Origin: Escherichia coli
GTDB lineage: Bacteria; Pseudomonadota; Gammaproteobacteria; Enterobacterales; Enterobacteriaceae
Assembly (NCBI RefSeq): GCF_044324875.1
Contig: NZ_CP172185.1
Strand: one strand, 5' to 3'
Length of the DNA: 64,000 nt
Position numbers and translations under genes: made by a program
Notes under the pieces: generated by a model
What the model was told of the DNA's origin: nothing
The model's database searches: none
The model's input: the letters and a program-made list of their open reading frames with translations, nothing else
Shown here: positions 55,612-58,681 of the stretch, in pieces
Layout: every line of letters starts with the position of its first letter
Position numbering within the stretch: the stretch's first letter is position 1

Positions 55612-55913
55612 TGTCGGCTTTATCGTAACCTCCCGTACTGGTCACGGGCAGACTGTTCATCATGTTAAACCCAGCCGCTGTCAGATCATGCACCGGCCGG
55701 ATGGCGGGCTGACCTGCCCCGCCGCGCTGCTGCCCGCCAATCCATTTCTTACCTTCCTTCCCGGTGGCCTGACGTCCGGCCTCGTCCCCTTTCACCGCAT
55801 CACCGTCACCGCTGTTCACCACCTTCTTGTACTCTTCCAGCATCGCTGGCCTGCGTCCATTTGCTGCGATCAGAAAAGTCCATCATCCGTTTTGCCATGT
55901 TCTGGCAGTTCAG

Positions 55914-56375
55914 TTACGCCTTGTCGAAAGCCACATTCGCCTGCAGCACACCGTTGGTGATCATGTCGTACAGGCCGGGGTTGGCACGCTGTATCACCAT
56001 CGCCGGCAGACTGGCAGCGGCGCCGGTCGCCCCCTGAATCACATCCCCCATCAGATTTTTAAAGCCGTCGGTCAATCCGTTAAGATGATTACCCACCGTG
56101 GTCTTCAGGTCAAAGTTGCCGCACATCAGATCGCTGCTCCAGCCCAGGTCCATACCCAGCTTCTGCATGTTGCTGCGCGTGGCCAACTGTGAGATCACCG
56201 AGCCGCCACCCAGCGTATAGAACAGTTTGTCGGATACGGCGCCATCCACGGATTTCCCGTAACCGAACGTGCTGTCATTCAGTTTCGGCAGGGAAAGAAG
56301 ATCAGCCATCGCCGGAATACTGCAGTACAGCATCACACTCAGTGCCACCATACCTGTTTTCATCTTCATCATCAT
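55914..56375 (-). pseudogene. Conjugative transfer protein TraH-like fragment (ICE/plasmid remnant)
   Basis: Signal peptide plus TraH-like N-terminal region (…GWSSDLMCGNFDLKTT…); truncated. Confidence 0.4.
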
Positions 56376-56825
56376 GGTTCCTTAAAAATTCGTACTGCCA
56401 AGGAATCGCTGCCCGCGCTTTTCGAAGCAGCTGTAAGGCTGCCACAGTGCAAAGGCTGCATTACCGTTCTCCGCCGCCTGGTGTTCACCATCCGGGAAAA
56501 CGGCACAGGAACGCGACACTGACGGCGTCAGTCGCTGCCATTTGTGATTGCGGGTGCCGGTGTTTTCCTCCACCGCCTCCGGGGGCCAGTAGCCGTCACG
56601 TTTCACGCCCTTAACCTCCCTGTAGACATGCGACTCCCCCATCCGCGTGATAATGTCGGCCACCCGCTGAGCCCCCACCGCCGCGGCCCGGTCATCATCG
56701 CTCTGCATCACAAAACCACTCCGGTGATAAACGCTCCCCCACATGTTTTTATCGGCCTAGCTGCCAATCTCGCGTTTGCCGGGAACCTGTGCCTCTGGAT
56801 ACAGGGATTCAGGTAATCCCGTTCG

Positions 56826-57356
56826 CTAGACGATGCTGTCCAGGGTACTGAGGAAATAGGCCATGGCCGGTGTCACCGGTGAATCACAGCTGAATCCGGG
56901 TACCATCCCGCCGATAAGCTGTGTGGCCGGATGACCCAGCGCATCTGCGTATTTGAAACGAATTGCTGAACGGCGCTTCCCCTGTATTTTCATATCCGCC
57001 GGATTTCCCCCGCCGGCACTCAGCCCGGACAGGCCGTCAGTGATGGCATTCTCCGGGCCACCTGCGGTCCGGCTGACCAGCGACATCTCTTTCCAGGGAT
57101 TACCACCCGGTGCCGTATAGGTGGAAATAACCACTTCCGGGATGAAATGTGTCACCTTCACGGAAATTCTGACCGTACAGCCAGACGCGCTGCAGTAAAG
57201 CCAGTAACAAATCCCGCTGACACGCCAGCTGATATAGTCCGGTGCCGCAGTACTGGCGATAATGCTGGCGGTGTTCAGTGATACAGACGCCAGGGGCAGT
57301 GATGCCACACTCAGTAACAGCACGCCGGTACGCAGACTACATTTCAGGGACATCAT
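56826..57356 (-). CDS. Putative conjugative-element transfer-region protein, secreted (TraU-like?)
   Basis: 176-aa ORF with signal peptide and Cys-rich motif GICYWLYCSASGC; assignment tentative. Confidence 0.3.
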   Translation of the reverse strand: MMSLKCSLRTGVLLLSVASLPLASVSLNTASIIASTAAPDYISWRVSGICYWLYCSASGCTVRISVKVTHFIPEVVISTYTAPGGNPWKEMSLVSRTAGGPENAITDGLSGLSAGGGNPADMKIQGKRRSAIRFKYADALGHPATQLIGGMVPGFSCDSPVTPAMAYFLSTLDSIV

Positions 57357-57469
57357 GGCTGCACTCCTCCCTCAGCACGGATTTTCCCGGCCATCACCAC
57401 ATCCATAGTGCCGTAAACCACCTCACTGTCATCAAACACCACGGCAGGGTATTTCTTCACGCCCAGCGA

Positions 57470-57748
57470 CTAGGCATGTGCCACATCGCGGTAATGACCG
57501 GCCAGTTCCGCCTGCATCGTCTGCCATTCGGGAGACTTCATACGTACCCTGACCACCGATTCAGCCTCACCCGCATCAGCAGGCAACAGGCCCCAAAAGC
57601 GGCTCTGAAGCTGCTCAGGCGCATCCAGCAGAACCACCCTGACACCATCAGGAGGATTAACGGGAAGATGCTGAGAATCGGTATAAATTGTTGTGCCGGC
57701 AGACGCTGCCAGCGGCAGGAAAAACAGGGAACAGAAAATCCGGTACAT
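57470..57748 (-). CDS. Small secreted protein, putative ICE-associated
   Basis: 92-aa ORF with signal peptide; sits in the cluster of transfer-gene remnants. Confidence 0.25.
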   Translation of the reverse strand: MYRIFCSLFFLPLAASAGTTIYTDSQHLPVNPPDGVRVVLLDAPEQLQSRFWGLLPADAGEAESVVRVRMKSPEWQTMQAELAGHYRDVAHA

Positions 57749-58681
57749 CGTACACCTCAGTCAGATATTATCTGACTGACAGCGTGCGAAGAAAGCGCTC
57801 ATTTATCAGCAATAAATTAAAAACGGGATTAAAAAATTACGGTGGGATCCGGGGAAGTGTATCTGCCAAGCATAACAGACAGTCTGTGATTATACCCGGC
57901 CTTTCACAAAGCCGGGGAACTGATTCATACCAAGTGGTGATTTTCAACAATAAGTATAATGAGGTTGTCCCGGCACCGGTGGCAGTGGTTCGAGATAGAC
58001 GTCATCAACAAAAACACAGGGGAATTTTTCAACTGCACATCCAGCACGCTCAGACATTACCTTCAGACTGATACCATGTTTCTCAGCATCAATAAAGAGG
58101 ACATCTGCCCCTGTTTCATCCCGGAGATTTGTCGCATGATGCATGATCCGGTGTACTGAAGGACATGTTTTGTAACCAAAAACACATATACGCATGTTGC
58201 ACCTCCTGATCACTGGTTGACGCCGATAATAAAACAATAATGTGAGCGTAAAAAATGCACCTCATACCACATTTCTGTAAAAGGCTCTGGCTATCACTGC
58301 AAAAAGCAAAATCTTAATTCCAGCATCACTTGTTACTCTCATTCCGTCACTTATATTTACCCACATGGCGATGTATTTAATTACTGCCCATAAGAATAAA
58401 AGCCGCTGGCGGATTATTTCTTTATTACCCGGATGCGGTCACAAGCCCACACATCGTCAACTACCTGCCGGTAATATTAACTGTCAGAAGAACGCATACA
58501 TCCGGATGTTTACAGAGTCGCGCGCCTGGTCACAGGTGACAACAGAAGTATGCCATACTAAAGGAGTAAACGGCGGGTCACTGGTGATCAAACACCTGCA
58601 TCGTGTGTTGCTGCCACTGCCCTCAGGTGACAGAGGCAGCATCTTTACGTATTATAATGCGTTATATCGGGTTTGTTGTTA

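Follow-up and report, generated by a model that had tools for sequence, protein, structure and literature searches.

The segment at 55633-57828 (minus strand) of the 64-kb stretch of Escherichia coli DNA analysed here (the window) contains three consecutive ICE mating-pore genes, TIGR03757/DUF1525, TIGR03756 and TIGR03755, which were identified by HMM searches with E-values from 1e-17 to 1e-47. We regard this segment, with high confidence, as the fossil MPF operon of an MPF_G ICE (SPI-7/PAPI-1/pKLC102/ICEclc/ICEEc2 family), preserved in an island fragment that runs from iha into the ICE backbone. The donor would have been an ICE whose cargo hotspot, immediately upstream of TIGR03757, was occupied by an iha-type receptor/adhesin gene; a fragment extending from iha through the downstream backbone would then have entered the island, where selection would have kept iha intact, and the hitch-hiking backbone genes would have drifted and been clipped by IS activity.

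Six co-oriented ORFs were present on the minus strand of this region (55565-55843, 55914-56375, 56382-56744, 56826-57356, 57470-57748 and 57944-58237). The preliminary description had taken them for conjugative-transfer remnants with signal peptides and had staked this view on matches to conjugation-associated families. Such matches were found: TIGR03755, TIGR03756, TIGR03757 and Pfam TraU were all detected, and five of the six ORFs matched ICE-specific conjugation families. These models place the genes in the mating-pore module of MPF_G ICEs, where they are neighbouring genes for periplasmic T4SS assembly. Single fragments scored below the TIGR full-length cutoff because they are partial, whereas intact homologues reached 546.8 bits (cutoff 270). 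Signal-peptide-like N-termini were also observed at the three gene starts, with hydrophobic cores (KD 2.2-2.4) and AMA/D and ASA/G cleavage-type sites.

All three genes are interrupted; together their lesions comprise four nonsense codons, a single +1 frameshift and a 3' truncation. The TIGR03757 gene (57353-57748, minus strand), a thioredoxin-like homologue of ICEclc orf57827, matched TIGR03757 (E 5.5e-17) and Pfam DUF1525 (E 1.4e-13) and is interrupted once, by a nonsense codon at position 93 of 131 (TGG>TAG, 57470-57472). The TIGR03756 gene (TraU-like, IceU; 56382-57356, minus strand) retains its full length of 324 codons with two nonsense codons, at codon 177 (TGG>TAG, 56826-56828) and codon 200 (CAG>TAG, 56757-56759). 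It matched TIGR03756 on both sides of the lesions (E 1.8e-47 for profile positions 1-150 and 5.1e-46 for positions 180-297), and its halves matched Pfam TraU (PF06834) with E-values of 6e-20 and 3e-16 (72.3 and 60.0 bits, cutoff 26.5); an intact homologue aligned with positions 7-305 of the 306-position TraU profile (E 1.4e-54, 186 bits). The Cys-motif protein with GICYWLYCSASGC that had been assigned to the transfer cluster indeed belongs to it: the ORF carrying the motif (56826-57356) is the N-terminal half of this pseudogene. PGAP annotates both TIGR03757 and TIGR03756 as pseudogenes with an internal stop. The TIGR03755 gene (55633-56372, minus strand), a homologue of ICEclc orf55476, gave two matches to its model (E 3.6e-47 for profile positions 1-106 and 5.7e-22 for positions 135-205). 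It keeps codons 1 to approximately 246 of 472, the 3' half being lost at 55633, and compared with the intact gene of the MS15052 ICE it has a nonsense codon 153 (CAA>TAA, 55914-55916) and a 1-bp insertion (+1) at 55847. RefSeq annotates only its first 153 codons, as a 'hypothetical protein'.

The left break point of the remnant is an IS3-family (IS2/ISEc48-like) transposase fragment at 55246-55611 (minus strand), which truncates the cluster as had been supposed. This C-terminal fragment matched Pfam rve_3/rve and positions 172-289 of the 301-position IS2 TnpB model PRK09409 of NCBIfam (E 1.5e-50); the DNA at approximately 55209-55640 shares ~90% identity with IS3 copies of the ISEc48 family, and PGAP describes the gene as a frameshifted partial pseudogene of an 'integrase core domain-containing protein'. 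On the right, the ICE-homologous block detected by blastn ends with ~80 bp of backbone upstream of TIGR03757 (57749-57828, minus strand). The host island, which is located downstream of ynjA, is a mosaic rich in IS fragments. The tyrosine integrase at 37036-38253 is part of this ynjA island and not of the ICE. Repeats or att-like sites bordering the remnant were not found beyond short chance matches, and no tRNA was present in the 64-kb window.

The closest relatives of the remnant are intact genes in chromosomal ICEs of E. coli MS15052 (NZ_CP082097) and GPEC1201. In blastn, 55633-57828 was 95.0% identical to positions 3471-5665 of ICE locus L003, with a single indel in 2196 bp, and 278 of 280 matching places in E. 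coli genomes were chromosomal. The gene order in the intact ICEs is ATPase, hypothetical gene, iha, TIGR03757, TIGR03756, TIGR03755, hypothetical gene and TraG_N, and the window contains iha, TIGR03757, TIGR03756 and the truncated TIGR03755 in the same order and orientation. The ICEs of MS15052, GPEC1201 and FDN-4 share this order and orientation, and their DNA is 95.0% identical to that of the window across the three genes and 93.5% across the iha cassette. However, an ICE of the MS15052/GPEC1201 type is a full element with ParA, DnaB-PI, ParB, TopoIII, a T4SS, a type IVB pilus and PilL. In some intact ICEs iha occupies a cargo hotspot that lies immediately upstream of TIGR03757; this hotspot is empty in G8 and APEC E19035 and holds different cargo in SI-NP020. 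Apparently intact iha-bearing ICEs were detected in approximately 26 complete E. coli genome records; the isolates came from poultry and from humans, and a CSF isolate is among them.

The order TIGR03757, TIGR03756, TIGR03755 on one strand was found in five E. coli ICEs and in ICEclc of Pseudomonas. In ICEclc, orf57827 (DUF1525), orf56883 (iceU) and orf55476 (TIGR03755) represent the same families and lie between a VirB4-type ATPase and a TraG_N/VirB6-like gene; in contrast, the window copies are enterobacterial pseudogenes, and the rest of the T4SS is missing. The ICEclc homologues are listed with type I signal peptides (SPI) in Table 1 of Daveri et al. 2023 (PMC10018362), which agrees with the signal-peptide-like N-termini seen in the window. 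In the same work the homologues of TIGR03756 and TIGR03755 were shown experimentally to be essential for transfer, and loss of the TIGR03757 homologue reduced transfer about 4-fold (PMC10018362). According to secondary descriptions, ICEEc2 of APEC BEN374 (pKLC102/PAGI-2 family; Roche et al. 2010) belongs to the same broad E. coli ICE family and has a type IV pilus.

The iha cassette (58609-60883, minus strand) contains an intact CDS (58682-60769) of 695 aa for a TonB-dependent siderophore receptor/adhesin, with flanks of 73 bp downstream and 114 bp upstream. Its predicted product is a full-length TonB-dependent receptor with 90.4% amino acid identity to O157 Iha, and PGAP uses the product name Iha in near-identical (at least 99.7%) loci. 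The cassette is 93.5% identical in blastn to positions 6051-8321 of ICE locus L003 and colinear with the insert that contains iha in intact ICEs. The gene itself is 94.8% identical to the ICE copy at the nucleotide level and 95.0% at the amino acid level, but only 85-86.5% identical in nucleotides to iha of O157, ST131, the LAA context and pO113. The classical iha islands (O157 TAI/OI-43/48, GI-pheV of UPEC/ST131, LAA and pO113) are likewise IS-rich mosaics and encode a homologous Iha (~90% amino acid identity). However, they have no ICE backbone beside iha, they match the window only within 58672-60856, and their alleles are 91.5-99.6% identical to one another. The flanks of the window gene (58609-58681 and 60770-60883) are shared with the ICE insert and not with these islands.

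The two ICE-homologous blocks are separated by a 780-bp spacer (57829-58608) that has no ICE homology and is unrelated to the 385 bp found at the equivalent place in the MS15052 ICE; of these 385 bp, 364 are ICE backbone and 21 are specific to the insert. The intact ICEs also differ in having 77-nt direct repeats on either side of the iha insert, which are absent in the window. The spacer is confined to this island lineage (59 records); otherwise only matches of ~70% nucleotide identity were detected, in six records, and in GPEC1040, the one of these six that was examined, the match lies in a non-ICE mosaic island. The spacer contains ORF 57944-58237 (minus strand), a weakly glutaredoxin/thioredoxin-like frame with a CPSV motif in place of CPYC and no signal peptide. 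GrxA models matched it with 32.7 bits (E 6e-8, cutoff 84) and 26.3 bits (cutoff 106.5), and Pfam Glutaredoxin with an E-value of 0.044 and 14.4 bits (cutoff 22.9); scoring below the curated cutoffs and having no CxxC, it is not assigned to the glutaredoxins. Every test run for a link of this ORF to conjugation was negative, and its candidacy as ICE backbone was rejected, given that its other matches are only ~70% identical, in six records, with a non-ICE island in GPEC1040. Of the 55620-58240 region originally proposed, 55633-57828 is derived from an ICE, and the part containing this ORF is not.

The same order and orientation as in intact ICEs, together with an intact iha, make the remnant best read as backbone that arrived with iha. 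From the gene order we infer that the direction was from ICE to island. No ICE backbone was found beyond the other side of iha, so the linkage of iha to the ICE is drawn from one flank only, and a donor variant with the 780-bp spacer was not among the sequenced iha-bearing ICEs. A secondary rearrangement may have occurred between TIGR03757 and iha. The alternative that the ICE piece was captured alone and met a separately acquired iha by chance, for example through IS activity, accords with the mosaic nature of the island, with the foreign spacer between the two blocks and with the classical iha genes, which move without ICE DNA and whose homology ends 10 bp past the stop codon. It would have to reproduce by coincidence the order, orientation and near-adjacency seen in intact ICEs, and it is further opposed by the position of the window iha within the ICE-borne clade and by flanks that match the ICE insert; we therefore consider it quite improbable. 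The earlier view that ICE DNA was captured in the island holds, with the qualification that this DNA most likely came attached to iha.

No further ICE homology was detected in the 64-kb window: with sampled parts of the MS15052 ICE as query (~72 kb; L002, 19 kb of L016, and L017), blastn and tblastn found only 55580-60883, and the SSB/PerC/ProQ cluster of the window had no match to these parts. By these searches, the VirB4-type ATPase (TIGR03744), the coupling protein, the relaxase and the other T4SS genes are absent from the window, as is every other one of the 20-odd further ICE genes, including the integrase. With no other ICE gene left in the window, a transfer function is impossible: the three genes are pseudogenes, and the remnant does nothing in conjugation. 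The codon changes on the window lineage (22 synonymous, 30 non-synonymous and 4 nonsense) differ from those of the two intact lineages pooled (39 synonymous and 17 non-synonymous; Fisher p = 0.002), and this excess of non-synonymous and nonsense changes indicates relaxed constraint. The concatenated dN/dS of the ICE genes was 0.38, compared with 0.16 between intact copies, and that of iha was 0.14. In FDN-4, an IS21 element is inserted in the TIGR03755 gene of the same iha-bearing ICE, which is an independent decay intermediate.

N-terminal fragments of 92, 153 and 176 residues with predicted signal peptides could still be made from the three genes. That such truncated secreted fragments are retained for a function, such as hindering the entry of ICEs from the same family or helping Iha to fold, would suit their preserved start codons and signal-peptide-like N-termini, their co-oriented position downstream of an intact, selected gene and the conservation of the arrangement at no less than 99% identity across 59 records. 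However, the carriers are this similar through recent common descent and not through selection, the substitution pattern points to relaxed constraint, and in these 59 near-identical E. coli records RefSeq treats two of the three genes (TIGR03756 and TIGR03757) as pseudogenes. No precedent was found in the literature searched, and we consider such retention very unlikely.

The TIGR03755 fragment had been labelled TraH-like, and this label could not be confirmed. Pfam TraH (PF06122) did not match the fragments or the intact protein at E≤1, and none of 75 diverse TIGR03755 family members matched it at E≤0.01. Profile-profile comparison with F TraH or an F-like TraH alignment was not significant, hhalign giving probabilities of 0.3% with a shallow TIGR03755 alignment and 2.9% with a deep one; in the latter case 50 columns at equivalent positions were aligned (E 0.015), against a TraH alignment that is itself shallow (at least 77% identity). 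HMM searches of PDB sequences detected no TraH-like chain. TIGR03755 resembles F-plasmid TraH in length (472 versus 457 aa) and in being located just upstream of a TraG_N gene, and one MPF_G homologue of TraH, Tfc22, has been reported (PMC4027160), but on profile evidence the TraH label for the fragment is unproven. The TraU domain (PF06834), on the other hand, is clearly common to F-plasmid TraU and TIGR03756. Integration of an F-type tra region (traU, traH and neighbours) into the chromosome could appeal to this domain, to the adjacency of traW-traU and traH-traG in F, which resembles TIGR03757-TIGR03756 and TIGR03755-(hypothetical gene)-TraG_N, and to profile comparisons that link MPF_G and MPF_F components (PMC4027160), but it is effectively refuted by the ICE-specific best models, the 95% nucleotide identity to chromosomal ICEs with SPI-7-type dnaB-PI, ParA/ParB, TopoIII, PilL and type IVB pilus genes, the almost exclusively chromosomal E. 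coli matches and the lack of any Pfam TraH match. The source, which had been left as an ICE or a plasmid, is therefore an MPF_G ICE of the SPI-7/PAPI-1/ICEclc type.

Taken alone, the remnant is of minor importance, as decayed ICE genes are common in mosaic E. coli islands and two of these three are already RefSeq pseudogenes. It is of use as an origin marker, linking the iha allele of the island to apparently intact ICEs. The ICE-borne divergent iha subtype is a mildly new by-product of the analysis; our literature search found no paper that links iha with an ICE. In a broader reading, which we consider possible but doubtful, SPI-7/PAPI-1-type ICEs carry iha-type genes as cargo within their T4SS operon, and this and conceivably the classical iha islands are decayed ICEs. 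If so, the ICE-linked allele would be a fourth, more divergent iha subtype, not described as such. Typing of iha based on the three described subtypes may miss the clade of the window gene, whose nucleotide identity to them is 85-86.5%. If the iha-bearing ICEs are transfer-proficient, a virulence-associated adhesin/siderophore receptor would currently be mobile by conjugation.

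We identified an ICE-derived remnant on the minus strand (integrative conjugative element; 55633-57828). Six co-oriented minus-strand ORFs (55565-55843, 55914-56375, 56382-56744, 56826-57356, 57470-57748 and 57944-58237) were all present where a preliminary description had placed a transfer-gene cluster. Five of them matched ICE-specific conjugation families of NCBIfam: TIGR03755 (E = 3.6e-47 for profile positions 1-106 of 419 and 5.7e-22 for positions 135-205), TIGR03756 (1.8e-47 for positions 1-150 of 298 and 5.1e-46 for positions 180-297) and TIGR03757 (5.5e-17 for positions 3-77 of 113). 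In Pfam, both TIGR03756 pieces matched TraU (PF06834) and the TIGR03757 piece matched DUF1525, so that the search against ICE-specific families and TraU suggested in that description was positive throughout. Signal-peptide-like N-termini were found at all three ICE gene starts, as signal peptides are likewise listed for the ICEclc homologues (PMC10018362, Table 1); the sixth ORF had none. Family matches and signal-peptide-like starts together show that the cluster is real and far beyond chance. The Cys motif attributed to a secreted protein was indeed present, in ORF 56826-57356 ('...WRVSGICYWLYCSASGCTVR...'), and this ORF corresponds to the N-terminal half of the TIGR03756 (TraU-like) pseudogene.

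A sensitive DNA search revealed 158 genomes covering at least 80% of the remnant, with 278 of 280 places being chromosomal. The nearest intact copies (95.0% identity) occurred in the CSF isolate MS15052 and the chicken isolate GPEC1201, both E. coli, in which the three genes are part of a full SPI-7/PAPI-1/pKLC102-type ICE. This ICE encodes ParA (next to a tRNA gene), dnaB-PI, ParB, topoisomerase III, STY4528/STY4534 replication proteins, PilL, TraD, the TIGR037xx T4SS set, a VirB4-type ATPase, TraG_N and a type IVB pilus with shufflon. Thus, of the two sources initially considered, an ICE or a plasmid, it is an ICE with the MPF_G mating-pore type that fits, and not an F-type plasmid.

Mapping onto the intact ICE genes placed the lesions of the remnant. 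Over 2196 bp, its alignment to the ICE shows 109 substitutions and just one indel. The TIGR03757 pseudogene (57353-57748, minus strand) has one nonsense codon (W93, TGG>TAG) and the TIGR03756 pseudogene (56382-57356, minus) has two (W177, TGG>TAG; Q200, CAG>TAG). The TIGR03755 pseudogene (55633-56372, minus) contains Q153 CAA>TAA and a +1 insertion at 55847, and stops after approximately codon 246 of 472 where an IS3 fragment begins, in agreement with the proposed truncation by an IS remnant. Directly to its left, ORF 55246-55611 encodes the C-terminal portion of an IS2/IS3-family transposase (NCBIfam, Pfam), with ~90% identity to ISEc48-like copies. Blastn and tblastn with about 72 kb sampled from the MS15052 ICE detected no further ICE parts anywhere in the 64-kb window. 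Codon changes specific to the window lineage comprised 22 synonymous, 30 non-synonymous and 4 nonsense changes, compared to 39 synonymous and 17 non-synonymous in the two intact lineages combined (Fisher p = 0.002). Concatenated dN/dS of the ICE genes was 0.38 for the window versus 0.16 between intact copies, and that of the neighboring intact siderophore receptor/adhesin gene iha (58682-60769) was 0.14; the ICE backbone genes drift and iha is kept under maintenance. An independent, earlier stage of the same decay is seen in FDN-4, where an IS21-family element (istA/istB) is inserted in the TIGR03755 gene of the same iha-bearing ICE (5018-9083 of that locus).

Two further assignments were not confirmed. 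The TIGR03755 fragment had been labeled TraH-like; neither the fragments nor the intact TIGR03755 protein nor any of 75 diverse members of the TIGR03755 family matched Pfam TraH, and hhalign gave a probability of 2.9% for TIGR03755 versus TraH. A good AlphaFold model of the TIGR03755 protein (pLDDT 78) had no meaningful PDB neighbor. Remote homology to TraH is possible, because Guglielmini et al. reported one TraH homolog, Tfc22, in MPF_G (PMC4027160), and TIGR03755 lies just upstream of the TraG_N gene with one small gene between, much as traH precedes traG in F. The sixth ORF (57944-58237) was rejected as a transfer gene: this small glutaredoxin/thioredoxin-like ORF lacks a signal peptide, has a CPSV motif in place of CxxC and showed only sub-threshold glutaredoxin matches. 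Elsewhere it has solely ~70% nucleotide matches in six E. coli records, being otherwise specific to the island lineage; in the one examined, GPEC1040, the match lies in a non-ICE island beside DoxX, dolP-like and yebF genes.

The window comes from E. coli, and the 3.5-kb region is at least 99% identical in 59 complete E. coli genome records, mostly poultry and human isolates. In these, RefSeq/PGAP already lists both TIGR03756 and TIGR03757 as pseudogenes interrupted by internal stops, TIGR03755 codons 1-153 as a 'hypothetical protein' and the adjoining intact gene as iha. The host island (~37000-64000), inserted downstream of ynjA, is heavily degraded and IS-ridden; its first gene is a tyrosine recombinase (37036-38253), and no tRNA genes are present in the window. 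The 40.4-47.8 kb segment contains no ORF of at least 150 aa. In close relatives, the stretch matching this segment is annotated with glycosyltransferase, deacetylase, IS5, IS66 and solute-binding protein pseudogenes or fragments, with small intact genes among them (YebF, cytochrome b562, SSB, PerC, ProQ/FinO-like). Iron ABC transporter pseudogenes lie just past that stretch and extend to the PhoX gene. In the window, an intact 661-aa PhoX-family protein with a twin-arginine-like signal (50242-52227), annotated as phosphatase in one relative, adjoins iron ABC transporter remnants among pseudogenes. Like iha, it appears to be among the few island genes still maintained.

In the intact ICEs, iha lies within the T4SS operon, with the small gene following the ATPase on one side and TIGR03757 on the other. 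Comparison of iha-bearing and empty ICEs defined an insert of ~2.3 kb with 77-nt direct repeats on either side (91% identical; 5958-6034 and 8362-8438 of the MS15052 locus), which duplicate the 3'-terminal part of the small gene after the VirB4-type ATPase. The same intergenic site is empty in sister ICEs of G8 and APEC E19035, and is occupied by an AraC-family regulator, a DUF1187 protein and hypothetical genes in the bovine SI-NP020 ICE (9241-11841 of that locus). Since it is empty or differently loaded in sister ICEs, this site acts as a hotspot for cargo within the T4SS operon, and the SI-NP020 example shows that cargo is highly variable in this ICE family in E. coli. Type VI-associated genes (Hcp, DUF2778) were also observed downstream of TraG_N in SI-NP020.

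The block at 58609-60883, which comprises iha plus flanks of 73 bp (downstream) and 114 bp (upstream), is 93.5% identical to the ICE insert. iha is carried by ~1,589 of 5,426 complete E. coli genomes, in nearly all of which homology to the window starts just 10 bp past the stop codon, with no adjacent ICE DNA. Full-gene comparison revealed two clades: the window and ICE alleles (94.8% nucleotide identity to each other), and the O157, ST131, LAA-context and pO113 alleles (mutually 91.5-99.6% identical), with 85-86.5% nucleotide (~90% amino acid) identity between the clades. Order, orientation, allele type and shared flanks tie the window iha to the ICE-borne form. In the simplest history, an ICE fragment extending from iha into the downstream backbone would have been incorporated into the island. 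The two blocks are separated by 780 bp (57829-58608) that are unrelated to the corresponding 385 bp of sequenced ICEs and limited to this island lineage; the exact donor ICE has therefore not been seen.

In ICEclc, the TIGR03755 homolog orf55476 and the TraU-like IceU are both essential for transfer, and a DUF1525 thioredoxin-like protein adds ~4-fold (PMC10018362). With all three genes broken and all other T4SS, relaxase and coupling functions absent, the remnant is unable to support conjugation; iha is the functional unit at the locus, with the remnant as passenger DNA on its downstream side. The remnant is ordinary, an element of known kind with known families, largely annotated already. 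Mildly new is the by-product that ICEs carry a divergent iha clade as cargo in a T4SS operon hotspot; our literature search, whose reach did not include the ICEEc2 paper, found no paper stating this. PCR subtyping built on the three described iha subtypes might miss the window/ICE clade.
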